A DNA stretch of 64,000 nt. It comes from Escherichia phage Sa157lw. This document shows, piece after piece, positions 9,764 through 50,815 of this stretch. Made by a program: the position numbers and the translations under genes. Each line of letters opens with the position of its first letter. The first letter of the stretch is position 1. The stretch lies in the sequence record OK322699.1; one strand, 5' to 3'. Under the pieces are notes generated by a model. That model saw only the letters and a list, made by a program, of their open reading frames with translations. It was not told the origin of the DNA and made no database searches.

Positions 9764-11269
9764 ATGTCAGAAATTCAAATAATCAAAGTTAACGAAGTGC
9801 GCATGCGAATCTTGGCGGAAGACTATATCCGCGAAGAACTCAATGATTACTTCAAATTTGAAGATCCTAATTTCCAACCGAATCCCTTCAGTAAATGGGA
9901 TGGCGTGGTACGCTTGTTCACAAAGAGTTCTGGCCTTATAGACATCGGTCTGTTGTTTGAGGTGTTTAAGTTCTGTAAGATGAATGGTTACACCATCAAA
10001 TTAGATCCCGCCTTAAAATATATCCAAGATATACCAGACGAAGAGATACATACATTTATCAATTCCCTGAACGCTGTTTACCGTGATGAAAACAAGCAAT
10101 ACCAAATCGCAACAGTGCGCGACTATCAATTCGACTCAGTGGCCACAGCAATACGCCAATCCAGATGCGTGCTAGAAGCGGCTACGAGCGCGGGTAAATC
10201 GTTTATTTTGTACATCATGGCGCGTTACTACAGGCAACGCAGAGAGGCACTGGAAAGCAATCTCAAGACGTTGATCGTTGTACCTTCCATTCACTTGGTG
10301 ACTCAGTTGTATGACAACTTTGAGGAATACAGCCATGGCACAAATTGGAATACCATGATGAATGTCCAGATGATATGTGAAGGTGCAACAAAGGATATAT
10401 TCAAGCCCATAGTCATTTCCACTTGGCAGGGTATTCAGAATCAGCCCAAAGAATGGTTCCATCAATTTGGGGATATTGTTGTCGACGAAGTACACACATC
10501 TAAATCTGAAAAGCTATCTTATATCCTGAACAACTGCATTAATGCTGACCAAAGATTGGGAGTAACCGGAACCCTCGCGAATACAAAGGTTGCAGGGTTG
10601 CAGGTCGTTGCCCATTTTGGAGCATACCATAAAATTATTACAGCACGTGATTTAATAAATCTTGGTTATGCCGCAGATATCCATGTCAACATGATTGAAG
10701 TCATACATCCCATGGCGGATTGTATAGAAATGCATGGTGCTGAGTACCAAAAGGAAATAGAATTCCTCATAGCGAATGAACGTCGAAACGAGTTAATAGC
10801 CAGAATGGCATTGTCTTTGAAAGGTAACGTGGCCGTTATGTTCGAACGCATTGACGCCCATATGATGATTGTTTATGAAATGCTTTCAGCCGTTAAGAAA
10901 AACGTATTTGTCATTAACGGCGAAGTTAAGACAGAAGTTCGTAAACAAATTCAGGCAGCGATGGAAGAGGGCGAAGATATAACACTGCTGGCATCTTATG
11001 GGACCATGCAACAGGGAGTGTCGATCAAAAAACTTCATCATTTGATATTGGCACACCCGAGTAAATCCTATATTCGTGTCATACAGACTTTAGGGCGTCT
11101 CATGCGCCAGCACTCTTCAAAGGATGTTGCCAAGATCTGGGATTTAGTAGACAACTTGCGTTACAAAGGATTTTCGTACAACCATGCCCTCAGACATTCG
11201 CATGAGAGATATAAATTTTATCTTATGGAGCGACACCCTGTACAAATGAAGAAAGTGTCGCTCCAGTAA
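9764..11269 (+). CDS. uvsW: UvsW RNA-DNA/DNA-DNA helicase
   Basis: 501 aa; Walker A ATSAGKS, DEVH box, C-terminal LHHLILAHPSKS..QTLGRLMR..WDLVDN match T4 UvsW. Confidence 0.9.
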   Translation: MSEIQIIKVNEVRMRILAEDYIREELNDYFKFEDPNFQPNPFSKWDGVVRLFTKSSGLIDIGLLFEVFKFCKMNGYTIKLDPALKYIQDIPDEEIHTFINSLNAVYRDENKQYQIATVRDYQFDSVATAIRQSRCVLEAATSAGKSFILYIMARYYRQRREALESNLKTLIVVPSIHLVTQLYDNFEEYSHGTNWNTMMNVQMICEGATKDIFKPIVISTWQGIQNQPKEWFHQFGDIVVDEVHTSKSEKLSYILNNCINADQRLGVTGTLANTKVAGLQVVAHFGAYHKIITARDLINLGYAADIHVNMIEVIHPMADCIEMHGAEYQKEIEFLIANERRNELIARMALSLKGNVAVMFERIDAHMMIVYEMLSAVKKNVFVINGEVKTEVRKQIQAAMEEGEDITLLASYGTMQQGVSIKKLHHLILAHPSKSYIRVIQTLGRLMRQHSSKDVAKIWDLVDNLRYKGFSYNHALRHSHERYKFYLMERHPVQMKKVSLQ

Positions 11270-11270
11270 T

Positions 11271-11648
11271 TCATTTATCTTGATTCACATAGGCGGGGGT
11301 TGCCTCGCCGTCTTTGTTAGAACCGAACAAACAACCCATCGTGTTGATGCATTGTTGTAGAACTTCCGGCTCAAGAATCTGACTCATCAGTTCTTCATTA
11401 GATTCCATCAGCGGGATGACTTTCACTTCCCGCGCCTGTCCTTGTTGGATAATGCCGATATACAGACCTTTGGTGTCTGGCAGTAACGGGATCACCATCA
11501 TTGGTGTCACAACAAACTTAGAAGTGCGATAGAGGCTGTGTAAGTAAACACCTTTCAATGTCGGTTGTTCTTCTACCAACATTGAAGACATTGAAAGGTT
11601 GGATTCTTGAACTTCCCCCACTGCATATAAACCCACGAATTGTTTCAT
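11271..11648 (-). CDS. hypothetical protein
   Basis: 125 aa ORF convergent with uvsW. Confidence 0.4.
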   Translation of the reverse strand: MKQFVGLYAVGEVQESNLSMSSMLVEEQPTLKGVYLHSLYRTSKFVVTPMMVIPLLPDTKGLYIGIIQQGQAREVKVIPLMESNEELMSQILEPEVLQQCINTMGCLFGSNKDGEATPAYVNQDK

Positions 11649-11984
11649 ATATCACTCTCTTGTTAGTAAACATAACTACATAATAATCTCATGCTGTGTT
11701 TAGACCAAATAAATTATTTTGCTAGTTGAATAAAAATCGCTTTCTTGTTGAACAATCCGTGCGTAATATACGAGTTGTGAGCTTTGCGAGCAACGAGTAT
11801 TATCACGAGCGAAGCGAGTAGACTGATAAAGAAAGGTTTTATTAAAACAGAATATTATAAATGCCGTCAGGCATTTATTTATCGCGCGTAGGGCATTTTA
11901 ACACTTGTTCTATAACTGCAAACACGCGATACTAATTTGCGTCAAACATGACTTGAACCCCACTATATTTTGAGGATATAAACA

Positions 11985-12653
11985 ATGCAAGAGATCACTC
12001 TCTCTGAACGCACTTTACAACTGCTGGCCAACTTTGAAACCATTTGCCCTTCTATCGTTCTGGCACCTGGTAAAAAGCTGCGCACTGTTAACGACTCCAG
12101 CACCGTCATCGCTATCGCTGACATCGACGAAGACTTCCCGTTTGAATTCCCTATTTTGGACCTGACCAAACTTCTGGCCATTCAGCGTCTGCCTAGTTTC
12201 AAAGGCGGTAAAATCGAAATGTCGGAAGATCATATTTTACTGAAAGGTGAAAACTCGCAGCTGCAATTCTGGCGCTCAGCAAAAGAATTGACTGTCGTTC
12301 CTGCCGACAGCATTGATCTCCCGTCCGTTGAATTCGAAGCGACGGTCACTCCTGAAAAAATGAAAGAGCTGACCCGCGCCTGTTCTACTCTGGGACACAA
12401 AACTGTTCGTCTGGTTGCCAGCGGCGGTAAAACCCGTCTGGTCGGTACGACTACGACTATCGATAATTCCAACGATTACACCGTTGAATTGGGTGAAACT
12501 GCTCTGGCTGATTTCGCTATGCCTGTCGACGTTGTTAACCTGAAAATGATCGAGGGCAACTATGTGATCCGCGCCTGTGCTGAAATGCAGCTTGTTAACT
12601 TCCAGTCGGCAGATGGTACCATCAACTACTACGTTGGCATGCAGCTGGATTAA
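11985..12653 (+). CDS. 45: sliding clamp gp45
   Basis: 222 aa; N-terminal LLANFETICPSI pattern like T4 gp45; followed by gp44/gp62. Confidence 0.85.
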   Translation: MQEITLSERTLQLLANFETICPSIVLAPGKKLRTVNDSSTVIAIADIDEDFPFEFPILDLTKLLAIQRLPSFKGGKIEMSEDHILLKGENSQLQFWRSAKELTVVPADSIDLPSVEFEATVTPEKMKELTRACSTLGHKTVRLVASGGKTRLVGTTTTIDNSNDYTVELGETALADFAMPVDVVNLKMIEGNYVIRACAEMQLVNFQSADGTINYYVGMQLD

Positions 12654-12683
12654 TCAATATCGCTTCGGCGCTTTATTATCGGT

Positions 12684-12708
12684 GGCGGGGTTATTATCCC
12701 GCCCTTTG
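12684..12708 (+). terminator. stem-loop GGCGGG ttattat CCCGCC + CTTTG
   Basis: inverted repeat after gp45. Confidence 0.4.
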
Positions 12709-12733
12709 AAATGTTTTATCTAAAGAGGCTGCA

Positions 12734-13723
12734 ATGTCCAACATTACTATCGTTACAGACCAATACGCGTGGGAAAACAAATATCGTCCTGATAATTTAG
12801 ATGAGATCGTTCTCCCCTCAGACGTCCGTGCCAAGATCCATGGTTATGTTACCTCTGGCAACGGAAACATCCCCTCTATGCTGTTCTACTCCCCTCAGCC
12901 TGGTACGGGTAAAACTACTTCTGCTCTGGCCGTGTGCAATGAAATCGGTTGTGTGAAACCTCTGATGATCAACGCATCGCTTGACAACAGCATTGATGTG
13001 ATTCGCGATCGTGTCATTCAATATGCTACTGGCGTCAGCGTTTTCGGTGGTCGGAAAGTCGTCATCCTCGACGAAGTTGAGCGTCTTTCTATGGCGGCTC
13101 AGGAATCATTGAAAGGTATCGTGGAAAAGGTTTCCAAGAACTGCTCGTTTATCCTGACCACCAACGCCAAACAGCGTGTCAATGAGCCTCTGCGTTCTCG
13201 TTGCCGTGAAATTGATTTCATCTGGTCCGAAAAAGAAGCCGACGAAGTTAAACTTCAATTTATGCGTCGTTGTGCCACTATCCTGACAGAAGAAGGCATT
13301 CCATACGAAGCTGGTGTTATTGCGTCGATTGTCAAGTCGTATTTCCCCGACAACCGTAAGATTATGGGCACCCTTCAGGATAATGCCACCACGTTTGGTA
13401 AAATCGATGAACGTGCTTTGGCTCAGGTGAAAGCGGGTGAATTCCAGGCGTTGGTCGATTTCTTAAAGGCCAATGATTGGGCTGGTATGAAGCAATGGGT
13501 GACTGACAACCAAAACTACATCACAGAGGACTTCTACTCTCGTTTCTTCCATTTCTGTGTTCCGCAGAACAAAGAGAAGAATCCTTTGATCCAAAACGAA
13601 TCTATCCCAGATTTGGTCTGTGTTTGTGGTCAGTCACAGATTGAACATCGTTCAGTTGGAGACGTCTGGTTACACGGCGTTTACTTCCTGACCAACGTCA
13701 TGCTCAACATCAAGTGGAAGTGA
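12734..13723 (+). CDS. 44: clamp loader large subunit gp44 (AAA+)
   Basis: 329 aa; Walker A SPQPGTGKTT, DEVERL box, SRC motif. Confidence 0.9.
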   Translation: MSNITIVTDQYAWENKYRPDNLDEIVLPSDVRAKIHGYVTSGNGNIPSMLFYSPQPGTGKTTSALAVCNEIGCVKPLMINASLDNSIDVIRDRVIQYATGVSVFGGRKVVILDEVERLSMAAQESLKGIVEKVSKNCSFILTTNAKQRVNEPLRSRCREIDFIWSEKEADEVKLQFMRRCATILTEEGIPYEAGVIASIVKSYFPDNRKIMGTLQDNATTFGKIDERALAQVKAGEFQALVDFLKANDWAGMKQWVTDNQNYITEDFYSRFFHFCVPQNKEKNPLIQNESIPDLVCVCGQSQIEHRSVGDVWLHGVYFLTNVMLNIKWK

Positions 13724-13727
13724 TATT

Positions 13728-14150
13728 ATGGCCGCTCCGTCACTGTTCGATTACCTGGGTGCTCTGAACAGCACCAAAGAGAATCTGTTGTTGACCGAAG
13801 ACCCCGAAATCAGAAAGGCTTTTGATCCTTTCATGACTCGGCGCGGCCTTGCTCAGAGTAAAGACACGTTGGTGGTTGCAGAACGAATGAACCGCTTCCA
13901 TGCCATTACTCCTTGGATGCAATGGAACCTTGCGTTTCATAGTATTCCAGCAAAACGCCGTTATGACAAATGGTCTAAGAAAGGAGCCATGGACCCTGAT
14001 GTAAAATTGATTTCTGAGTATTACTACATCAGTCCTGAAAAGGCTTCTGAGTATGTTCGATTCCTGCCGAAAGAAGTCCTGGCTGAAATCAAGGCGAAGG
14101 TCGAACGTTCCAACAGCAACGAAAAAGCTAAACCGCGCAAGGCTAAGTAA
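13728..14150 (+). CDS. 62: clamp loader small subunit gp62
   Basis: 140 aa; AKRRYDKWSKK motif resembles T4 gp62 RGKRYGKWAK; position after gp44. Confidence 0.6.
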   Translation: MAAPSLFDYLGALNSTKENLLLTEDPEIRKAFDPFMTRRGLAQSKDTLVVAERMNRFHAITPWMQWNLAFHSIPAKRRYDKWSKKGAMDPDVKLISEYYYISPEKASEYVRFLPKEVLAEIKAKVERSNSNEKAKPRKAK

Positions 14151-14248
14151 TTCAAATTATTGTTAAAGGGGTACGAGTCATGGCGCGTAATACGCTGGAC
14201 ATCTTGAAACTTTCAGCTGTTAACGATGAGGCCAGCATCGTTGATTGT

Positions 14249-14644
14249 ATGGTTGAAGTTCAATTGAACCAAGATAAACCAGGAATTTTTCTGGGTATCA
14301 AGGAAACGCTGAGCCGCATCGGGGTGAACACTCGTCAAGAGCCGAATACCCTGTACCAAACATGTCATATTCTGCATAAATTTGGCAGATATCACATCGT
14401 GCACTTCAAGCATCTTTTCATGCTGGATGGGCATTACAACGGCTTTACGCGTGAAGATGTCCTGCGTATGAATCGGATTATTCGGCTTTTGGAGCAGTGG
14501 AATATGGTTAAAATACTGCATCCGGAACAGATTACCGAAGTTGCTGATATGTCTCGAATCAAAGTTGTAAAACATGACCAAGTTTCTGATTGGAAACTGG
14601 TTCCAAAATATACCATCCGCCCGACTCGGGCGAAAAGCGAATAA
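14249..14644 (+). CDS. regA: translational repressor RegA
   Basis: ORF 14180..14644 trimmed to internal ATG; IKETLSRIGV..LYQTCHILHKFGRYHIVHFKHLF..WKLVPKYTI matches T4 RegA. Confidence 0.85.
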   Translation: MVEVQLNQDKPGIFLGIKETLSRIGVNTRQEPNTLYQTCHILHKFGRYHIVHFKHLFMLDGHYNGFTREDVLRMNRIIRLLEQWNMVKILHPEQITEVADMSRIKVVKHDQVSDWKLVPKYTIRPTRAKSE

Positions 14645-14660
14645 CTGGAGTCGCTATATT

Positions 14661-15524
14661 ATGACAACTACATTTAATAAAAACGTGAGACTGAATCTGG
14701 CTTTTGGTAATGCTGCAGGGGACGTGACCGACCCCGACTTTAGCAAAATTCGCAATCAGGCAAAACTCGTGCTGGAAGAGACCCGCGAACTTCTGGAAGC
14801 GGCTTATTACGATCATCAAGTGGTTCTAACATTAGAATTGAATCCTCGAGAAAGCGAGACGCCGACCACTACCGAAGATCTGATGAAAGCCATCATGGAC
14901 GCGCAGGGTGATATCACTACTGTTAACGACGGTGTGGCCCATATCGCGGGTTTCAATGGTGATGAGTGCTTACAGCGCGTGTTTGCTTCCAACATGAGCA
15001 AGTTTATCCGCTCTGAAGATGAAGTCGGTCCGGCTCTGGACTATTACTATTCTCGCGGTTTCCCTGATGGACAATTGCGTGTGGAAGGCGAATTCCCTCA
15101 GGCATGTATTAAAGTTAATGAAACTGTCGTTTGGAATGGTAAAGAATATCCTAAAGGGAAATTCCTTAAAAACATGGCTGTTTTCCAAGAGCCTGATTTT
15201 TCTGACATGCTGACCAAAACTCCTTCCCGTCAGATCAACGATATCGTTGCCAGCATGGCGATTGAAGAAGGTCAGGTGTTTATCGATGATCTCAATGGCG
15301 TGGCGTTGGTATCCCCGAACACATTGGGTGTAATCCTTTCCATGGCTGTTGAAAAAACTTCTCAACCTGTAGAGATCGACGGGCAAATCGAAAGTTATGT
15401 GCCAGCGTTCATCGTGGATGACACCAATATGCCTAAGCTGTGTGGGGTGTGGGGTTCTAATGTTCGTGTTTATGCGAGCACTCCAGTGCAGAACACGGTA
15501 ACACACCTCTCCCGTATCGATTAA
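14661..15524 (+). CDS. hypothetical protein with N-terminal MazG-like EExxExxEA motif (possible NTP pyrophosphohydrolase domain)
   Basis: ORF trimmed to ATG with GGAG RBS; LEETRELLEAAYYD motif; occupies the slot where T4 has gp43. Confidence 0.4.
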   Translation: MTTTFNKNVRLNLAFGNAAGDVTDPDFSKIRNQAKLVLEETRELLEAAYYDHQVVLTLELNPRESETPTTTEDLMKAIMDAQGDITTVNDGVAHIAGFNGDECLQRVFASNMSKFIRSEDEVGPALDYYYSRGFPDGQLRVEGEFPQACIKVNETVVWNGKEYPKGKFLKNMAVFQEPDFSDMLTKTPSRQINDIVASMAIEEGQVFIDDLNGVALVSPNTLGVILSMAVEKTSQPVEIDGQIESYVPAFIVDDTNMPKLCGVWGSNVRVYASTPVQNTVTHLSRID

Positions 15525-15548
15525 TATAAACCGTTATTCATTAAACAA

Positions 15549-15575
15549 CAGAGGCTATAATGGCCTCTGTTTTTG
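15549..15575 (+). terminator. stem-loop CAGAGGC tataatg GCCTCTG + TTTTTG
   Basis: inverted repeat read directly. Confidence 0.6.
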
Positions 15576-15593
15576 TATTCTAGAGAGGATACC

Positions 15594-16817
15594 ATGAAAG
15601 ATAAACCGTGTGACATTCCTTATTGCGGTGTTCGGGAAACCAAAATTAAATCTGCACACCCCACGTTAAGTCCATTCCATAAACAACTCGCATACGAATG
15701 GATGAGCGAGCGCTATAAGATCCACGTGAGAAAGGACGTCCAACGTCTTCCTGCTCCTTGGACGGATAATCCCATACTACGGCAGGTCAAGTTCTGTAAC
15801 GTCCGGAGAGAGCACGACAGGCAGTCTCTTAACCTGATCAACAATATCGTCAAGAACGATGCTCTGGGCATTGCCGACAAGATGTTCAACTGTGTTCTGT
15901 TCCGCATGTTCAACCTCTGGGACCCGATCAAGGCTATCGGTGACGCTCGTACTATCAAAGAGTTCGCAAACATCGATCTTGATGCAACCCGCAAAAGTCT
16001 TCAGGAATTTGAGGCCAACGGTGGTAAGATCTTCACCAATGCCTTCAACACAGGCGGTCTAAAGCAGTGTCTGGCGTTCCCCGAACTCGTTGTCAACCAC
16101 AAGGAGCAGCGCTTTGGTGGTATGATGGTTAAGGTACACCGTGTTGGCCAGGGTATCGTTGATGAATTGGATTACAAGGTCGCCAAGAAGCTGGTTGAAG
16201 AAAATCCTGGGGAGTACACGATCGAGGGCTGGGAGCCGTACATGCCGATGCGTGTTATCCGTTCCCTGAAGGCATTTGTCAACAAGTATCCTGATTATTT
16301 CAATGATCTTTTACGTCTTGACTCTCCGCTGAAAGTTTACCAGCGCATGTATGACGACATTGAAGGGCTTGGGCCATTCCTGGCATATCAGATATGGGTG
16401 GACTTCACATACATCCCTGAGTATCCATTCAGTGAGAATCACTTCACCATCGCTGGCCCAGGTTGCCGTGCGGGTATTGACCTGATGTTCCTGGATAAGG
16501 ACGGTATGACTCATGAAGAGTGCATCTTCTGGGTTCGAGATCACCAGTATCAATTGTTTGCCCAGTATGGTTATGTCCAAGAGCAGTTCTGGTCAGCCGA
16601 AGCGCCGGAAGATCAGTGCATGAATGTCATGCAGCTGGAGAACATGTTCTGTGAATTGAGCAAGTACACCCGCTGTGTTGAGGCCATTGAGAGAGGGGAA
16701 AAGCCACGCGGCAAGGTCGGTTACGATGGAGGCGGAGAATACAAAAAGCGGTGCGATGAAGTTGTCCTCAAACGCGGTTCCGTCAATTTGTTAGATCGTT
16801 TGAAGAAACCTGAATAA
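15594..16817 (+). CDS. hypothetical protein (407 aa)
   Basis: ORF 15573..16817 trimmed to MKDKP with GAGAGG RBS; no confident domain match. Confidence 0.45.
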   Translation: MKDKPCDIPYCGVRETKIKSAHPTLSPFHKQLAYEWMSERYKIHVRKDVQRLPAPWTDNPILRQVKFCNVRREHDRQSLNLINNIVKNDALGIADKMFNCVLFRMFNLWDPIKAIGDARTIKEFANIDLDATRKSLQEFEANGGKIFTNAFNTGGLKQCLAFPELVVNHKEQRFGGMMVKVHRVGQGIVDELDYKVAKKLVEENPGEYTIEGWEPYMPMRVIRSLKAFVNKYPDYFNDLLRLDSPLKVYQRMYDDIEGLGPFLAYQIWVDFTYIPEYPFSENHFTIAGPGCRAGIDLMFLDKDGMTHEECIFWVRDHQYQLFAQYGYVQEQFWSAEAPEDQCMNVMQLENMFCELSKYTRCVEAIERGEKPRGKVGYDGGGEYKKRCDEVVLKRGSVNLLDRLKKPE

Positions 16818-16825
16818 AGAATCGC

Positions 16826-16864
16826 TTTACTTCATTCTTCAATAACCCCCTTTCAACGTATATT
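16826..16864 (+). promoter_or_regulatory. promoter-like element of the TTTACTTC-TTCAATAA family (spacing atypical)
   Basis: TTTACTTCattcTTCAATAA .. TATATT; conserved leader AGGAAGACTATACCATG downstream. Confidence 0.35.
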
Positions 16865-16929
16865 GACCTCACTTTAACGACGCGCCCATTTAGGGCGCTC
16901 AATTTGAACTGAAACAGGAAGACTATACC

Positions 16930-18951
16930 ATGGCAGAATTCAAACCTTTCGCAACGGCTGTTAATGATAACGTGCTGGCGATGTCCGCAACTGGTCTGTT
17001 TATGACCAACGTTGATAAAGATGCTCTGTGGGATTTGTATTTGGCATCCTTCCCAGCTGGTACCAACCCGATGTACCGCGAACGCACTGAACACGACTGC
17101 ACCTGCTGTAAACAATTCATCCGTAATATCGGCGGCGTCGTGACTATCGATGCTGACCTGAACGTTATCTCGATTTGGGACAACATTGAGCTGGGTAACG
17201 AATACGACGTGGTGGCTGCGGCGCTGTCGACCTTCGTTAAACAACACGCAATCGTCGACGTGTATTTCAACGATTCTGCTAAAGTCGGCCTGTCTCATAA
17301 CCACGAATCTGGTGAAGACGGCAAAATCCGCACGTATAACCATTTCCACACCGAACTGCTCGGCAGCTATGTCCTGCGTTCTGATGCTATTGCATCTAAA
17401 AAAGGTGAAATCCGACAGGCTATCGAATTATTTGAACGCGGTCTGCGTGAAATTACTCTGGAATCAGCAGAAATCGTTCTGGAATTGATTGATCAGAATT
17501 CTTTGTATCGCGGCGCTGAACATAAAGCTGCGGTGATGGGCTTCGTAGTAGCCAAGACGGCATATGAAGAAATCCCAGAATCTAACCGTTCTCTGTGGGC
17601 ATGGCGCACTGGTTATCGTTCAAACAATCATGTTCCACATGGCATTCGCAACACCGTTATCGGTACTCTGTTGACTGATATCAGTGAAGGCGTGGAACTG
17701 GAAAAGGCCGTTAAGTCGTTTGAAACCAAAGTTGCCCCAGCGAACTACAAACGCCCGACGGCTCTGGTCTCCAAGTCCATGATCGAAAACGCTCAGAAAG
17801 AAGTGATTGCTCTCGGTCTGGAAGATTCGCTGGCGCGTCGTTATGCAGTTTATGACGACCTGACGATCAATAACGTTCTGTTTGCAGACCTGGCTGCTCA
17901 AAAAGCGATGGATCCATTCGCTCAACTGGCCGCCGAAGTGAAAACGCCGACCAAGTCGCTGGATAAAGTTGAAGAGATTGGCATTGACGACTTCCTGAGC
18001 AATATCCTGCCGAAAGCGCATTCAATGGAAGTGCTGGTTGAAAACTCGCATACTGGCAACCTTATGTCTCTGGTCGCTCCGGCTATTGCAGGTGCTCCTA
18101 ACCTTTTCAAATGGGGCAACGGTTTCTCATGGTCATACAACGGCGAAGTGGCCGACTCCATCAAAGAGCGTGTGAAAGCGGCTGGCGGTAAAGTCGACGG
18201 GTTCCTCCGTGTATCCCTGGCTTGGCACAACAACGATGACCTCGATCTGCATATGTTCTTTAACAATATGGAACATGTGTACTTCCGCGATCGTCGTTCA
18301 ATGACTGGTGCTCATCTCGATATCGACATGAACGGTATGGACGGCATCGACCCGAACCGCTCTCCGGTAGAAAACATCATCTTCACTGATGAAAGAAAGC
18401 TGCGTGACGGTGAATATCGTTTTGAGATTCACAACTACAACCAACGTGAAAAGATCGACGAAGGGTTTGAAATTGAAGTTGAATACAAAGGCGCTACGCA
18501 ACGTTTTAGCCACAATGGGTTAAAAGACCAGGGGCGCATCACTGCCGTCGTTCTGACTGTTAAAGACAAACAAGTCGTTAGCATCAAGTCTGAGCTGGCG
18601 AATGTTGATAAATCCAAAGAAATTTGGGGCATTAAGACAGCGACCTTCCAGAAGGTACAGCTGGTCCTGAACTCACCAAACCATTGGGATGGTGAACAAA
18701 CTGGCAACAAGCACGTCTTCTTCATCTTGGAAGGTTGTGCGAATCCTGAAGGTACTCGTGGTTTCTACAATGAATATCTGAAGCCGGAACTGGATAAACA
18801 TCGTAAGGTTTTTGAAATGTTGGGTAGTAAAATGAAAGTACAACCCAACGAAAACCAACTGTCTGGTTTGGGGTTCTCGACAACGCAACGCAACCATGTG
18901 TTCGTCAAAGTGTCCGGCGCGTTTAACCGTACTGTAAAAGTCATTTTCTAA
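16930..18951 (+). CDS. hypothetical large early protein (673 aa)
   Basis: long ORF with conserved leader; no confident domain match. Confidence 0.5.
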   Translation: MAEFKPFATAVNDNVLAMSATGLFMTNVDKDALWDLYLASFPAGTNPMYRERTEHDCTCCKQFIRNIGGVVTIDADLNVISIWDNIELGNEYDVVAAALSTFVKQHAIVDVYFNDSAKVGLSHNHESGEDGKIRTYNHFHTELLGSYVLRSDAIASKKGEIRQAIELFERGLREITLESAEIVLELIDQNSLYRGAEHKAAVMGFVVAKTAYEEIPESNRSLWAWRTGYRSNNHVPHGIRNTVIGTLLTDISEGVELEKAVKSFETKVAPANYKRPTALVSKSMIENAQKEVIALGLEDSLARRYAVYDDLTINNVLFADLAAQKAMDPFAQLAAEVKTPTKSLDKVEEIGIDDFLSNILPKAHSMEVLVENSHTGNLMSLVAPAIAGAPNLFKWGNGFSWSYNGEVADSIKERVKAAGGKVDGFLRVSLAWHNNDDLDLHMFFNNMEHVYFRDRRSMTGAHLDIDMNGMDGIDPNRSPVENIIFTDERKLRDGEYRFEIHNYNQREKIDEGFEIEVEYKGATQRFSHNGLKDQGRITAVVLTVKDKQVVSIKSELANVDKSKEIWGIKTATFQKVQLVLNSPNHWDGEQTGNKHVFFILEGCANPEGTRGFYNEYLKPELDKHRKVFEMLGSKMKVQPNENQLSGLGFSTTQRNHVFVKVSGAFNRTVKVIF

Positions 18952-18988: not shown

Positions 18989-19360
18989 ATGTTTGATCAA
19001 GCAACCCGTTTAAAACTGCGTTTTAACTCTAACAAAGGTCTGCTGTCTGTTGAGCAGGTTTGGGATCTGAATCTGAACGCACTGAACGAGCTGGCGAAAG
19101 ATCTGAGCCGTCAGGTGAAAGAAGCAGCCAGCGATGAAGAAGACTTCATCGGTGTGAAAAGCGCGGTCGATTCTCAGTTACAACTGCGGTTCGATATCGT
19201 GAAAGCGATCATCGGTGTTAAACTGAAAGAACGCGATGAAAGCGCGACCGCAGCAGAGCGTAAAGCGAACAACCAGGCGATCATGGAACTGATCCAGCGT
19301 AAGAAACAACAGGAACTGGAAGGTCTGTCTGTTGAAGAACTGGAAAAACTCCTGAAATAA
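18989..19360 (+). CDS. hypothetical coiled-coil protein
   Basis: 123 aa, heptad-rich, AAGGAACAAAGAAATG start. Confidence 0.45.
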   Translation: MFDQATRLKLRFNSNKGLLSVEQVWDLNLNALNELAKDLSRQVKEAASDEEDFIGVKSAVDSQLQLRFDIVKAIIGVKLKERDESATAAERKANNQAIMELIQRKKQQELEGLSVEELEKLLK

Positions 19361-19380: not shown

Positions 19381-19408
19381 AAACCCCGCCGTGTGCGGGG
19401 TTTCTTTT
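19381..19408 (+). terminator. rho-independent terminator AAACCCCGC cgtgt GCGGGGTTT + CTTTT
   Basis: near-identical to terminator at 3368-3397. Confidence 0.75.
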
Positions 19409-19419
19409 GGACAAAAATC

Positions 19420-19830
19420 ATGAAATCTATTACGTGTGATTACTGCGGTCAACCTGCCCAATACGTCGGGTGTGATGTTGTATACCCCCACCGCCCCGAC
19501 CTCCGCAATCTGAAGTTCTGGGTATGCTCGCCATGCGACGCTCGTGTGGGTTGCCATACCCATGGGGATGGTAGACAACCTCTGGGAAGGATGGCGAATG
19601 CCGCTCTCCGTGCTGCTAAGCAGGAAGCTCATAGATCGTTTGACCCTATCTGGAAAGGTGGGCAGAGGAGCAGGAGTGATGCTTACAGCTGGCTGGCTCA
19701 TAATCTGGGGATCAAGAAGCGCGATTGCCATATCGGCTTGTTCGATATCGATATGTGCCGTAAAGTAGTCGCTGTGTGTAATCAACTAAAGGCACAAGAT
19801 AATGTCAAAGGAAATACAAGAAGCATTTGA
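19420..19830 (+). CDS. zinc-finger protein (CxxC..CxxC)
   Basis: ORF 19393..19830 trimmed to MKSITCDYCG; cysteine pairs CDYCG / CSPCD. Confidence 0.45.
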   Translation: MKSITCDYCGQPAQYVGCDVVYPHRPDLRNLKFWVCSPCDARVGCHTHGDGRQPLGRMANAALRAAKQEAHRSFDPIWKGGQRSRSDAYSWLAHNLGIKKRDCHIGLFDIDMCRKVVAVCNQLKAQDNVKGNTRSI

Positions 19831-20771: not shown

Positions 20772-21038
20772 TTCTTCAAAAGTCTTTCAAAATCAATAAC
20801 GTCCGGCAAAATGCTGGGCGTTTCAATTAATAAGCCAAGGTATAATGGCCCAACTGAAAACGCGGGGGAATTTCTTTGTCCAAGCCATTCATTCGTTCCG
20901 GAGTTGATTCTCTAGACTCCCAATTTAAGCCGAGCGAAGTTTTAATCCAACAAATTGAAACCAATCGTGAATTCATAGAACACATGTTGGCAAAGCCGGA
21001 AGGCGAAGCCGCTCAAACCACCAAAGAAGGTAATAACG

Positions 21039-23255
21039 ATGATTGAATCATTAACATTTAAAAATGCGGTAGCAACCGTCGCGCCGTCTAACCATGTAAT
21101 CGTTGTGGATATCTCCGGTTCCATGTACCGTTCACTTCCTGAAGTTCGCAAGCATCTGAAGGAAAATCTCCCGTCTCTGGTTAAACCAGAAGATACCGTC
21201 AGCATTCTTTACTTTTCATCCCGTGGTGATTTCGGTACGGTATTCGCTGGCCGTCAGATCAATAGCGCGACCGATCTCAGTGAAATCAATAAACTGATTG
21301 ACCGCTTCCTGCAACCGTCCGGTTGTACGGGATTTGTAGAACCTCTGAAGTTGGCTGCTGAAACCGCGTTGAGCCTGAACAAACCTGGTTATGTCAATAA
21401 CCTGGCGTTCATGACCGACGGCTATGACAACTGCTGGCGCTCTAATGAAATTCTGGCAGCAGCTGAAGTACTGCCCAAGGCGTTCGATAATATTACATTC
21501 ATCGAATATGGCTGGTATTGTAACCGCGAACTTCTGGCTCTGATGTCCGAGCGTTCTGGCGCGACTCACGTGTTTGCCGAAGGTCAGACTGAATATCAGA
21601 CCGAACTGGAAAACGTACTGAAATCATCTACGCCGAAAGTGGTTGTTGATGTTCCCCTGGTTTACACTCATGCCATCTACGTTGAAAACGGCGTGGCAAC
21701 TGTGCTAGCCGTACAACCCGATGAAGAACACCCGATTGGCCACGTCAGCATCCCTGAAAGCGTTTCTCAGCTGTGGGTTGTAAACCCTAACATGATCGAC
21801 CAGCTGGATAATCTGGCAGACACCCAGGCGGCATACGTGCTGGCATTCTATGGCGTGTACACCATGGACGCCGATCTGGTCTGGGCCGCGCTGAAGAAGA
21901 CGGGTGACGTCCGCTTCATCAAACAATACAGCAACTGTTTCACCAAGCAGGACTATTCCAACATCAAAGTCGATCTGACCCAGGCTATCGTGGATGAAAC
22001 TCTACGCGGCGTAGATGGCATCGATTACAATATGGTTCCAGCTGAAGATGCAACGACCATTGTTGATGTCTTGACCTACCTGGCCGAAGCCGATGTCTCT
22101 GTTGTCACTAAGCATCCATTGTTCTCTTACAACAGCATCGGTCGCGGCACTGTGCAGAAAGTTGATGACACTGAAGACAAGCTGGCTGAACAAATCGCCG
22201 AAGCCAAAACCAAAGCAGAGCGTAAAGCGCTGGCTCTCAAACTGGCTGAGCACGAAGATTGGACACCGGAATTTACTCCGGTTGATGACAAAGGGATTGT
22301 CCCAATTAGCAATCTGGTCTACAATTCAGAGCGCCCTAACATCAGCATTCAGACCGTTCAGCATGGGACGGTTGTTGTGCCGGAGTTCGTACAGAAGAAA
22401 TATGAACTCCCTGAAGAACTGGGAACCTGGCGTTATCGTAATTACACCATCGTCAAAGATGGAATCATCAACCTGAAGACGATGCCGATTACTGCCGAAT
22501 CTCCGATTGTCCGAGCTAAGGTTGTCCAAGATTTGATCGCCATGGGCGTTAATGTATTTGGTGGACCGGAAATCTTCATCGTTAATTTAGAAAGCGTTCC
22601 GATGGTCAACCGCGCCATGACCAAGAACATCAGTGCTGCCGAATTCTTCGCTGACAACGTTCGTCGCGAAGCGCTGAAGGCAAAACAGAAAGTTCTGAAA
22701 TTCTATCGTGATGAACTGGTTGGCAAAGGCAATGCAACTGGTCTGGCTTCTAAATATGGTAAAGAAGCCGCCGATTTCTTGTCGGCAAATGGCATTCGCG
22801 ACTACGGGTTCTCGCCGAAAACTACTTCTGTGGAATCAACCGATGTCTACATGAGCCGTGAGCTGAATGTGAAAATCAAAGGTGCTTCGTCGCTGCCGAG
22901 CATTGCGTCAGTTATCAAAAAGCAAGCAGATGGTAAAAAACTGAATGTCGCTGATCAGTTGATTGCCAATGCTTTGGCCGAATACGACGCTTTTGTTAAA
23001 TCGCCAATGATCACCAGCGTACCTGAAGAGACTCAGAAAAAGCTGATTGAAAGCTGGATCGGAGACGCAGCAAAAGCGGCCATTAACGAAGTCCGCGCCC
23101 TGAACAAAACTCTGTCTAAAGTAGTTTACGGCATCGTCGCTGGTCATGGTTGGTTCACTGATTTGGATCTGGAAGAGTCTACGATGGATGTAGAAGTTGA
23201 TGGGGTGAAATACACCGTCACTGCCGAACTGGCCGAAAAAGAAATCAAAATCTAA
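21039..23255 (+). CDS. von Willebrand factor A (vWA) domain protein with MIDAS motif
   Basis: 738 aa; N-terminal VVDISGSM (DxSGS) and downstream FMTDGYDN consistent with vWA/MIDAS. Confidence 0.55.
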   Translation: MIESLTFKNAVATVAPSNHVIVVDISGSMYRSLPEVRKHLKENLPSLVKPEDTVSILYFSSRGDFGTVFAGRQINSATDLSEINKLIDRFLQPSGCTGFVEPLKLAAETALSLNKPGYVNNLAFMTDGYDNCWRSNEILAAAEVLPKAFDNITFIEYGWYCNRELLALMSERSGATHVFAEGQTEYQTELENVLKSSTPKVVVDVPLVYTHAIYVENGVATVLAVQPDEEHPIGHVSIPESVSQLWVVNPNMIDQLDNLADTQAAYVLAFYGVYTMDADLVWAALKKTGDVRFIKQYSNCFTKQDYSNIKVDLTQAIVDETLRGVDGIDYNMVPAEDATTIVDVLTYLAEADVSVVTKHPLFSYNSIGRGTVQKVDDTEDKLAEQIAEAKTKAERKALALKLAEHEDWTPEFTPVDDKGIVPISNLVYNSERPNISIQTVQHGTVVVPEFVQKKYELPEELGTWRYRNYTIVKDGIINLKTMPITAESPIVRAKVVQDLIAMGVNVFGGPEIFIVNLESVPMVNRAMTKNISAAEFFADNVRREALKAKQKVLKFYRDELVGKGNATGLASKYGKEAADFLSANGIRDYGFSPKTTSVESTDVYMSRELNVKIKGASSLPSIASVIKKQADGKKLNVADQLIANALAEYDAFVKSPMITSVPEETQKKLIESWIGDAAKAAINEVRALNKTLSKVVYGIVAGHGWFTDLDLEESTMDVEVDGVKYTVTAELAEKEIKI

Positions 23256-23293
23256 ATCTAATTGGCGGGGAAACCCGCCTTTACTTTCAGGAA

Positions 23294-23611
23294 ATGAATA
23301 TGAGCAACAAACCGACTTATGTTGATGTCATGCGCGATTTGGCCCAATACGCATGTGACAACCTGAACATGGAAACTTGGCGCGACGGCGATCATAAAGA
23401 AAAGTTCGATAATATCGACGACAACATCGATGCGTTGGCTCCTCTTCGGGCCAAGAGCGATCTCGGCGGTGATGATCTTGACATGATTGAACTCATCATG
23501 GAAGTTGAAGAACAATATGATGTTGAAATCAGTGATGACTGGGTAGGCAAACATGGTGATGATCCCACGCTCGGCGAATTAGCTGAATTGGTAGTTGCCC
23601 TCAGCAAGTAA
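23294..23611 (+). CDS. acyl carrier protein-like protein lacking the phosphopantetheine-acceptor Ser (DDLD instead of DSLD)
   Basis: C-terminal DLGGDDLDMIELIMEVEEQYDVEISDD mirrors ACP helix II [20 protein letters not shown]..IPDE. Confidence 0.45.
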   Translation: MNMSNKPTYVDVMRDLAQYACDNLNMETWRDGDHKEKFDNIDDNIDALAPLRAKSDLGGDDLDMIELIMEVEEQYDVEISDDWVGKHGDDPTLGELAELVVALSK

Positions 23612-29877: not shown

Positions 29878-30156
29878 ATGAACCGTACTGATTTTATCGC
29901 TCACATCGCCCAGACTCAGGGTATGACCAAAGGCGAAGCAGAGAAGATCGTGGCATCCTTTATCAATGGCGTAAAAACTGCAGTCGCAGCTGGCCAATCT
30001 GTCCAATTCGTCGGCTTCGGCGCGTTTGAAGTTAAACATCAGGAAGCGCGCACTGGTCGCAACCCGCTGAACGGGCAAGCGATTCAGATCGAAGCGAAAA
30101 ATGTTGTTAAATTCAAAGTCGGCGAAGGTCTGAAAGCTGCTGCCAACGGCCAGTAA
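29878..30156 (+). CDS. HU/IHF-family DNA-binding protein
   Basis: ORF 29842..30156 trimmed to MNRTDF (GGAG RBS); FxGFGxFEV..R.GRNP..G..I arm motifs of HU. Confidence 0.8.
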   Translation: MNRTDFIAHIAQTQGMTKGEAEKIVASFINGVKTAVAAGQSVQFVGFGAFEVKHQEARTGRNPLNGQAIQIEAKNVVKFKVGEGLKAAANGQ

Positions 30157-48532: not shown

Positions 48533-50815
48533 ATGATTAACATCATAAAGCGGGACGGATCTTCTGTCCCCTTTGACATTGAAAAACTCCACACTGTTCT
48601 TGAACGTGCCTGTGAAGGATTAGAAGGAGTTTCGGTGTCTGAGGTGGAAGCAGCATCGAAGATTCAGTTCACAGACAATATGAAAACCGAACGCATTCAG
48701 GATATTATCATCCAAGCGGCGGCTACATTGATTTCTGTAGAAAAACCCAACTACCAATATGTTGCTGCCCGTCTGAAATCGTATGACCTGCGCAAAGTCG
48801 TCTATGGGCGATACAAGCCACCTCATTTGCTTGATATATTCGCTAAAAACATCAAGCAGGGCGTTTATGATCGTGAATTCCTCGAACTCTATACGAAAGA
48901 AGAATTTGAAGAACTGAACACGGTCATCAATCACAAACGCGACAAGAATTTTACTTGGGCGGCTATGGGCCAGCTCACGCAAAAATATCTTTTGCGCGAT
49001 CGCTCAGCAGACAGCAAAGTATATTACGAAACGCCTCAAGTCATGTATATGGCGATCGCGATGGCTCTGTTCTCTGCATGGGATAAAGAAACCCGCCTGA
49101 CGATGGTGAAGAAATTTTATGAATACGCCAGTACAGGTAAATTCAGTCTTCCAACACCCATCATGTCCGGCGTTCGTACCCCAACCCGCCAATTCAGTTC
49201 TTGTGTTCTTATCAAAACTGGTGACACTTTGGACTCAATCAATGCTACAGCCAAAAGTATTGTTGATTATGTATCCAAACGCGCTGGGATCGGATTTGAT
49301 GTCGGAGCAATTCGCGGCATCGGTAGCCCTATCCGAAAAGGCGAAATGGTGCACACAGGCCTGGTTCCTTTCATCAAATATCTGACTGGGGCATTAAAGT
49401 CTTGCTCTCAAGGCGGTATTCGTGGCGGATCAGCAACTTGCTATATCCCTATCTGGCATTATCAATTTGATGATGTTGTGGTCCTGAAGAATAACCGTGG
49501 TCTTGAAGAGAACCGTGAACGCCGTATCGACTACGGTATTCAGATCAACCGTGTCATGTTCGAACGTCTGGTGAACAAACAACCCCTGTATTTGTTCGAT
49601 CCGAAAGACAACCGCGATATGTACGAAGCGTTTTTCGCAGATGTCGATAAGTTCCGTACCCTGTACGACAACATGGTCAAAGCTGCTGATGCTGGTTTGG
49701 TTCGTGCCAAGAAGATGAATGCGGAAGAAGTATTCCAGATGTTGTTGGATCAGCGTTCAGATACAGGCCGCATCTACATCGCGTTTGTCGACCACATGAA
49801 CCAGTACAGTCCATTCAATCTAGACACAATCTATAGTTCTAATCTGTGTCTGGAGATTGCGCTTCCTACTCGTGAATTCCAACAGTACGACGATGAAGAA
49901 GGTCGGATCGCTCTGTGTACTTTGGCCTCTTTTAACCTGACGGCGTTTGAAGACCCGACAGAAATGGAAGATGTTGCTTTCGTTCTGGTTTCAGCTTTGG
50001 ATATGTTGTTGGAATATCAGGACTACCCAGCTCGCCAAGCCCGTTTGGCTGTAGAAGAATATCGTCCTCTGGGTATCGGTATCGTCAACGTCGCGCATTT
50101 CTTCGCCAAGAACTTCACGGGGTATGGATCTCCTGTTGGGTTAGAACTCCTGGACAAGTGGATGGCGCACCTGCATTTCTATCTGGTAAAGGCTTCGAAT
50201 CGTCTGGCCATGAAGTTTGGGGCATGTAAGAAGGAAACCATTCATCGTTCTGGTAAGATAACAGCCGACCTTCAACCGTTGCCGCTGGATATCCTCCCCA
50301 ATGGTAAAAAGCCGGAAGGTATGGCATACGGCCTTGACTGGGACGGTTTGAAAGACTCTCTGCGTTGCCATGGTATCCGCAATGCTACTCTCTTGGCGAT
50401 AGCACCAACTGAAAGCTCCTCTCAGGTGCTGAACGCCACGAATGGTATAGAGCCACCCAAAGGCCTCATCAGTATCAAAGGCAGCAAGGATGGCGTTTAC
50501 AAGCAGATCGTTCCGGACGTTGAAACCCTTGGTCCTCTATATGACCTGAAATGGAATCTGTCTTGTATCGACTATTTGAAAACAGCGGCGGTCGCCCAGC
50601 GTTGGGTAGACCAATCCATCAGCGTTAATACACATTATGATCCAGAGAAATTCCCAGACGGGAAGATCCCGCGCTCTCTCATGATGCAGGATATTCTGTC
50701 TTTCTACATGTGGGGTGGTAAAACTCTGTATTACAACACCAACAAAGACTCTAAGGAAGATGAAGAGTTGAAACAAATTGAAGATCCGAATCACTGTGAC
50801 ACCTGTGTTGTCTGA
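48533..50815 (+). CDS. nrdA: ribonucleotide reductase class Ia large subunit NrdA
   Basis: 760 aa; ATP-cone start MINIIKRDGSSVPFD, C-terminal redox cysteine pair. Confidence 0.9.
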   Translation: MINIIKRDGSSVPFDIEKLHTVLERACEGLEGVSVSEVEAASKIQFTDNMKTERIQDIIIQAAATLISVEKPNYQYVAARLKSYDLRKVVYGRYKPPHLLDIFAKNIKQGVYDREFLELYTKEEFEELNTVINHKRDKNFTWAAMGQLTQKYLLRDRSADSKVYYETPQVMYMAIAMALFSAWDKETRLTMVKKFYEYASTGKFSLPTPIMSGVRTPTRQFSSCVLIKTGDTLDSINATAKSIVDYVSKRAGIGFDVGAIRGIGSPIRKGEMVHTGLVPFIKYLTGALKSCSQGGIRGGSATCYIPIWHYQFDDVVVLKNNRGLEENRERRIDYGIQINRVMFERLVNKQPLYLFDPKDNRDMYEAFFADVDKFRTLYDNMVKAADAGLVRAKKMNAEEVFQMLLDQRSDTGRIYIAFVDHMNQYSPFNLDTIYSSNLCLEIALPTREFQQYDDEEGRIALCTLASFNLTAFEDPTEMEDVAFVLVSALDMLLEYQDYPARQARLAVEEYRPLGIGIVNVAHFFAKNFTGYGSPVGLELLDKWMAHLHFYLVKASNRLAMKFGACKKETIHRSGKITADLQPLPLDILPNGKKPEGMAYGLDWDGLKDSLRCHGIRNATLLAIAPTESSSQVLNATNGIEPPKGLISIKGSKDGVYKQIVPDVETLGPLYDLKWNLSCIDYLKTAAVAQRWVDQSISVNTHYDPEKFPDGKIPRSLMMQDILSFYMWGGKTLYYNTNKDSKEDEELKQIEDPNHCDTCVV

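Follow-up and report, generated by a model that had tools for sequence, protein, structure and literature searches.

Genes downstream of regA in a Kuttervirus genome, and a shared C-terminal tail that may tether thymidine-hypermodification proteins to the sliding clamp

In T4-type phages the core replication genes stand in the order 45-44-62-regA-43, which we verified in phage RB6, and the DNA polymerase gp43 is encoded directly downstream of regA. In the 64,000-nucleotide stretch of Escherichia phage Sa157lw analysed here (OK322699.1, referred to as the window), the same accessory operon is followed by three other genes, which raises the question of what occupies the gp43 slot and where the polymerase has gone. 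The original prediction, made from the letters of the window, placed open reading frames (ORFs) of 287, 407 and 673 amino acids directly 3' of regA, read all three as unassigned proteins unlike a family B polymerase, and proposed that they form one module. The ORF map reproduces these three frames on the + strand between 14661 and 18951, and none of them has a polymerase-family match in Pfam or PHROG. We consider it likely that the locus reflects scattered Kuttervirus replication genes, with a post-regA slot that holds a MazG-type enzyme, a clamp-docked gp160 protein and a DUF8224 cassette.

By sequence, the window belongs to a Kuttervirus genome (ViI-like, Ackermannviridae): across the 5.4 kb that surround the locus, identity is 99.7% to Escherichia phage ECML-4 and 99.2% to Salmonella phage Vi01, both members of that genus. 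The accessory operon (11985..14644, + strand) consists of adjacent, co-directional genes for the gp45 sliding clamp (11985-12653), gp44 (12734-13723), gp62 (13728-14150) and regA (14180-14644), which match PHROG 223, 168, 225 and 242 (E 4.8e-65 to 3.6e-108) and the Pfam families Gp44_lid, Phage_clamp_A and Translat_reg. No gp43 gene lies directly downstream of regA in the window, and a family B polymerase was not found among the ten largest other window ORFs checked against Pfam, which include ribonucleotide reductase, gp32, helicases and a von Willebrand A (vWA) protein. As had been anticipated, the polymerase lies elsewhere: in ECML-4 its gene occupies 66213-69209 of the opposite strand, a region ~54 kb away from the clamp operon that the window does not cover. 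Its neighbours there are ADDT (the gp247 ortholog), HMUD2 kinase 2 (the gp243 ortholog), a PALP pyridoxal phosphate (PLP) enzyme (the gp226 ortholog) and an NT5C-like nucleotidase, which places gp43 beside the core thymidine-hypermodification genes, namely those for the 5-hydroxymethyl-2'-deoxyuridine (5-hmdU) DNA kinase 2, the serine:DNA transferase and the PLP decarboxylase. The corresponding ECML-4 products are gp095 (HMUD2) and gp092 (ADDT), and gp030 is a thymidylate-synthase-like dUMP hydroxymethylase homolog.

Much of this setting was already known, including the scattered replication genes, the conversion of ~40% of thymidine to 5-(2-aminoethoxy)methyl-2'-deoxyuridine (5-NeOmdU), and the listing of gp160 as a hypermodification candidate. 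A review describes Ackermannviridae as having a scattered gene organisation, unlike T-even phages, and ~40% of their thymidine as 5-NeOmdU (PMC11721090). The absence of gp43 after regA is therefore a known family trait, and the notion that other genes had taken the place of gp43 does not hold, since a displaced gp43 belongs to the known Ackermannviridae organisation and involves no replacement event (PMC11721090).

The middle gene of the three (15594-16817, + strand) provides the link to hypermodification. Its 407-amino-acid product shares 100% identity with Vi01_130c, the gp160 protein of phage ViI (Vi01), and occupies the same position after regA and a MazG-like gene, showing that it is the same gene. 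It matches Pfam PF18723 (HMUDK_hel) over residues 31-366 with E 4e-83 and a score of 279.5 bits (gathering cutoff 25), in agreement with the suggestion that aGPT-Pplase-like families should be considered for this protein. gp160 has the helix-hairpin-helix DNA-glycosylase-like fold and is a glycosylase-like paralog of the amino-acid:DNA transferases, belonging to aGPT-Pplase clade 1. Alongside it, ECML-4 encodes a kinase for 5-hmdU DNA, a clade-2 transferase and a homolog of dUMP hydroxymethylase; in Vibrio phage K448 and in two further relatives (L011 and L012), this kinase, transferase and hydroxymethylase homolog set is clustered.

The one new lead from the locus is a short C-terminal tail that gp160 shares with the polymerase and with two modification enzymes, and which appears to be unreported in the searchable literature. 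When gp160 was aligned with the ECML-4 transferase using hhalign, the sole signal came from the last dozen residues. In ECML-4 the DNA polymerase ends in …RRVNLLSMMGKKG, the transferase in …STSVNLMSLLKR, kinase 2 in …SSVSLLGLMRKA and gp160 in …GSVNLLDRLKKPE. A six-frame scan of ECML-4 (1219 segments, 128,906 residues) for V[NS]L[LM]x[LMR][LM] returned four occurrences, all of which are the extreme C-termini of the DNA polymerase, AADT (the serine:DNA transferase), HMUD2 kinase 2 and gp160. The codons differ among the four tails, indicating that there was no recent DNA duplication and that the likeness is kept at the protein level. In gp160, the candidate gp45-binding tail S396-V-N-L-L-D-R-L-K-K405 (16779..16808, + strand) lies at the C-terminus in a region predicted to be disordered, residues 382-407 having a pLDDT (predicted local distance difference test) below 50 in the structural model.

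The tail was also found to vary with the lineage. Taipeivirus polymerase, kinase and transferase carry NLL/NVL-type tails, and in K448 (45% identity) the polymerase, kinase, transferase and Pplase1 all end in [KR][KR]LW, an ending present in none of the 21 neighbouring coding sequences (CDS; 25 in total). In the metagenomic relative L011, the C-termini of the three enzymes read NVFDIFGA, SLNDFFG and SVLDLF, close to the T4-type gp43 end of RB6, SLDFLFG. The motif is thus borne by the cognate polymerase and changes in step with it in Kuttervirus, Taipeivirus and K448. L012 is the exception and speaks against a clamp tail common to all of these phages: its enzymes end in KKLW and its polymerase in VNVFKFFKQKEA, so the covariation is not universal.

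In T4-type phages, the gp43 C-terminal peptide reportedly binds the gp45 clamp (Berdis et al. 1996; for RB69, Shamoo and Steitz 1999). The tails described here resemble the T4/RB69 gp43 tail in being short hydrophobic C-terminal peptides past a flexible linker, common to the polymerase and to enzymes that act on DNA; unlike it, they vary in sequence with the lineage (VNLLxxM, KKLW, SLxDFFG). A further analogy is offered by the PCNA-interacting (PIP-box) tails of the DNA methyltransferase DNMT1. From these likenesses, we infer that the modification enzymes are probably tethered to the gp45 clamp via their tails, a reading that we hold with slightly less assurance than the overall account of the locus. 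The shared tail would then dock gp160, kinase 2 and the transferase on gp45 as the gp43 tail does in T4/RB69, and such docking would couple post-replicative modification to the replication fork. Gene linkage is consistent with this proposal: Kuttervirus Pplase1 lies just downstream of gp45-44-62-regA, and in L011 (7050-14817) the kinase 2-transferase-Pplase1 trio stands directly upstream of gp45-gp44-gp62-regA, which connects Pplase1 with the clamp genes by another arrangement. Targeted literature searches retrieved no report tying the clamp to DNA base-hypermodification enzymes.

It seems improbable to us, though worth weighing, that the tail binds some other partner, such as gp32, a helicase or a modification scaffold, or that it serves as a degradation or localisation tag. 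The divergent polymerase tail of L012 would fit such a role, as would the lack of the motif in this phage's late-transcription proteins, whose T4 counterparts bind gp45. Set against this are the position of the peptide, which reportedly corresponds to the clamp-binding peptide site of T4/RB69 gp43, the L011 tails that are near-copies of SLDFLFG, the presence of the tail on the polymerase in three lineages, and two arrangements in which Pplase1 neighbours the genes for clamp and clamp loader.

Two ORFs outside the window bear related endings. An unannotated 86-residue ORF just upstream of the ECML-4 DNA ligase gene (NC_025446.1, 28471-28731, + strand) ends in ...KGKINLLNMMRK and, under a looser pattern, is a fifth protein with a polymerase-type tail. 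In L012, a 329-residue ORF that follows Pplase1 (11245-12234) has an N-terminus like that of HNH endonucleases joined to a duplicate of the last ~60 Pplase1 residues, KKLW included, which suggests insertion of a homing endonuclease and, with it, duplication of the Pplase1 3' end.

The conserved residues of gp160 bear on what it might do on the clamp. Among 36 homologs (down to 41% identity), 58 columns are invariant, including KFxNxRRExDR, FTNAFNxGG, GPGC and ENxxCExxKY. Two of these stretches, G288-P-G-C291 (nt 16455-16466, + strand) and E349-N-x-x-C353-E354-x-x-K-Y358 (nt 16638-16667, + strand), are candidate active-site motifs, and E349, C353 and GPGC are retained in the C-terminal domain of the SP10 gp186 kinase fusion, which is 24% identical to gp160. 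Because this invariant Glu/Cys motif has been kept, gp160 is most likely an enzyme, which would act on 5-hmdU or 5-phosphomethyl-dU (5-PmdU) in new DNA; in the mechanism that we propose, it would flip these bases out of newly made DNA. Additionally, its E349-N-x-x-C353 resembles the E243-T244-x-x-C247 of the PaMx11 gp46 (PUGT) transferase, in which E243/T244 form the metal site and C247 is the nucleophile (PMC11472151). The resemblance of ENxxC to the transferase ETxxC is a pattern match only, since profile-profile alignment failed.

Several results weigh against this reading of gp160. hhalign did not align clade 1 with clade 2, using thin profiles of one or four transferases (probability <1%), and Foldseek returned no significant PDB match for the gp160 model. 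gp160 has no match to Pfam ADDT (PF18724), and comparing it with PDB sequences by phmmer or profile search produced no usable match. From the biochemical literature, Lee 2018 introduced gp160 as "aG/PT-PPlase1", one of five lysates that jointly made 5-NeOmdU on 5-hmdU DNA (PMC5889632). According to Lee 2021, the pathway is accounted for by the kinases together with clade-2 gp247, which transfers serine, and gp226, which decarboxylates; the transferase that the pathway needs is thus gp247 and not gp160. Purified kinase, gp247 and gp226 suffice for 5-NeOmdU in reactions that did not contain ViI gp160, making gp160 dispensable for this synthesis in vitro (PMC8989533). The same work explicitly omitted the clade-1 homolog of phage M6, gp55, and gave clade 1 no function (PMC8989533); a 2026 paper treats Pplase2 only.

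This dispensability would also suit a non-enzymatic gp160, a DNA-binding helical accessory that targets or positions the 5-hmdU DNA kinase. The Pfam name of the family, 'HMUDK helical domain', and the fusion of the domain to the kinase in SP10 lend themselves to this idea, as does the finding that the SP10 kinase domain is active by itself (PMC8989533). An accessory of this sort would scarcely account for enzyme-like invariant Cys, Glu, Asp and Arg residues across homolog identities of 24-45%, nor for a Glu-x-x-x-Cys resembling a transferase metal/nucleophile site, and gp160 carries a clamp-type tail of its own and so has no reliance on the kinase. We therefore regard a purely accessory role as unlikely and retain the reading of gp160 as an enzyme.

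A more specific proposal would combine clamp-riding kinase 2, transferase and gp160 with a function for gp160 in turning the remaining ~60% of 5-(phospho)hydroxymethyl-dU into thymidine, which we put forward tentatively, as a possibility with the odds against it. Cys353 would form an exocyclic methylene, followed by reduction. The route from 5-hmdU to thymidine 'is still unknown' according to Lee 2018 (PMC5889632), and M6 gp51 together with borohydride yields T from 5-PmdU (PMC8989533).

The first gene of the slot (14661-15524, + strand) encodes the 287-amino-acid protein, which corresponds to Vi01_131c. Its MazG-like EExxExxEA motif was confirmed as E39 E40 T R E43 L L E46 A47, and the MazG/HisE assignment proposed for profile checking was upheld by matches to phrog_2144, to DR2231 of Deinococcus radiodurans and to PRA-PH/MazG families. 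Along its full length, the protein matches phrog_2144, 'MazG-like pyrophosphatase', at 2.8e-132; on its own, it matched no Pfam model. An exhaustive search of 1.8 billion representatives recovered 215 relatives, most of them standalone proteins of ~150-270 residues that align to query residues 1-185, thereby delimiting a catalytic domain at residues ~1-185 (nt 14661-15215). The C-terminal extension of ~100 residues is confined to close relatives. A profile of 36 relatives matches DR2231 at 9e-9 across the metal-binding helices, with weak matches to E. coli MazG and HisE, and Pfam matches among the 36 family members comprise PRA-PH (21/36), MazG (12) and MazG-like (10). Within the acidic EExxE...DxxxD signature, which DR2231 shares, E40, E43 and D84 are invariant in 36 homologs and D80 nearly so. 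On this profile homology and these acidic residues, the protein is a member of the MazG/HisE superfamily and of the all-alpha NTP pyrophosphohydrolase type; unlike DR2231, it has an insertion and the C-terminal extension.

As for its role, DR2231, the closest solved relative, is reported to be dUTP-exclusive, and 5-hmdU phages use a dTTPase/dUTPase to make room in the pool for 5-hmdUTP (PMC8989533; PMC13458397). A probable role for the 287-amino-acid enzyme is to lower the level of pyrimidine dNTPs (dUTP and/or dTTP), which would allow the polymerase to incorporate 5-hmdUTP. A competing candidate within the genome tells against this assignment, as a dUTPase_2 protein encoded beside the thymidylate-synthase/dUMP hydroxymethylase homolog is the more obvious dUTPase/dTTPase. 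In total, ECML-4 has three proteins of the all-alpha NTP pyrophosphatase type, the other two encoded at 21764-22309 and 48820-49398.

The third gene (16930-18951, + strand) encodes the 673-amino-acid multidomain protein, which belongs to DUF8224 (PF26675, phrog_1735) and has more than 6000 homologs, typically ~50% identical and of the same length, in large phage contigs. Immediately downstream, at 18989-19360 (+ strand), lies a 123-amino-acid protein (phrog_2018) that is its conserved partner: homologs with 43-45% identity directly follow DUF8224 in two unrelated contigs (L006 and L007), which have no MazG, Pplase or kinase gene near DUF8224 and share only this gene pair with the window. The synteny suggests that DUF8224 and the 123-residue gene form an independent mobile two-gene cassette that is not tied to base modification and is perhaps metal-binding.

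In the predicted fold, residues ~420-560 (nt 18187-18609, + strand) adopt a TerD-like beta-sandwich. At the sequence level, there is no likeness to TerD/TerE (Ter) proteins, residues 413-565 having no Pfam match even at E 10, and in the phage the TerD-like domain sits within a 673-residue protein together with four other domains. Splitting the protein into domains gave no Pfam matches, and phmmer and profile searches of it against PDB sequences yielded nothing usable. In Vi01 (14931-16950, equivalent to window 16930-18951), the annotation divides DUF8224 between a pair of overlapping CDS (Vi01_129c and Vi01_128c); the window and ECML-4 carry the gene unbroken, and the Vi01 split represents a frameshift or sequencing error.

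The GenBank record of phage Guerrero labels DUF8224 a 'putative DNA-directed RNA polymerase', and the gene is located among replication genes. We considered an RNA polymerase identity on the strength of that one annotation and rejected it; an identity as RNA polymerase or as any other replication or transcription enzyme is, in our estimate, extremely improbable.

These assignments bear on whether the slot holds a single early-expressed nucleotide-pool or DNA-modification module, as the original prediction had it. All three genes are adjacent and co-directional, and two of the three proteins fall in nucleotide or DNA-modification families. A terminator-like hairpin predicted by a consensus scan (15547-15571, + strand; 11-bp stem, then a T-run) follows the MazG-like gene and splits it from gp160, a gap of 112 bp precedes DUF8224, and the DUF8224 pair recurs in unrelated contigs that have none of the proposed partners. 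Hairpin, gap and synteny together indicate three units rather than one. Also, the Pplase1 of relatives stands with kinase and transferase beside the polymerase, or upstream of gp45, and not with MazG or DUF8224. A single module is therefore very doubtful, more so than any of the rival readings of gp160 or its tail given above.

Other parts of the original prediction fared unevenly. The description of the three proteins as unassigned is incorrect: public records carry annotations for two of them, which Lee 2018 and Lee 2021 also discuss, and Pfam classes the third as DUF8224. The guess at nucleotide-pool or DNA-modification functions stands for the MazG-like protein and for the aGPT-Pplase gp160 and fails for the DUF8224 protein. 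An HU-like protein cited in its support is indeed encoded in the window (29878-30156, + strand; HU/IHF-type), and we found no link between it and the locus.

Several neighbouring features complete the description of the region. A 145-residue DUF3268 zinc-finger protein (19393-19830, + strand; Pfam 5.6e-37) is unannotated at that position in the ECML-4 RefSeq record. Two small ORFs of ECML-4 (gp142 and gp141, 132517-133125) are missing from the window at ~20800-21040, which marks the window as closely related to ECML-4 but distinct from it. At 21039-23611, the window encodes a 738-residue protein with an N-terminal vWA domain, followed by an acyl-carrier-protein-like ORF of 105 residues, and neither is conserved beside DUF8224 elsewhere. 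PADLOC and NCBIfam gave zero matches for any protein of the locus, and a scan for the T4 late-promoter motif was uninformative (3 matches against 1.7 expected, none within the locus).

For the biology of these phages, a co-varying tail on the polymerase and on three DNA-modifying proteins points to clamp-coupled modification of nascent DNA. If true, clamp coupling would explain how modification matches the pace of replication, and the tail, together with the conserved cysteine, may offer a handle on the role of the clade-1 Pplase and on the step from 5-hmdU to thymidine.

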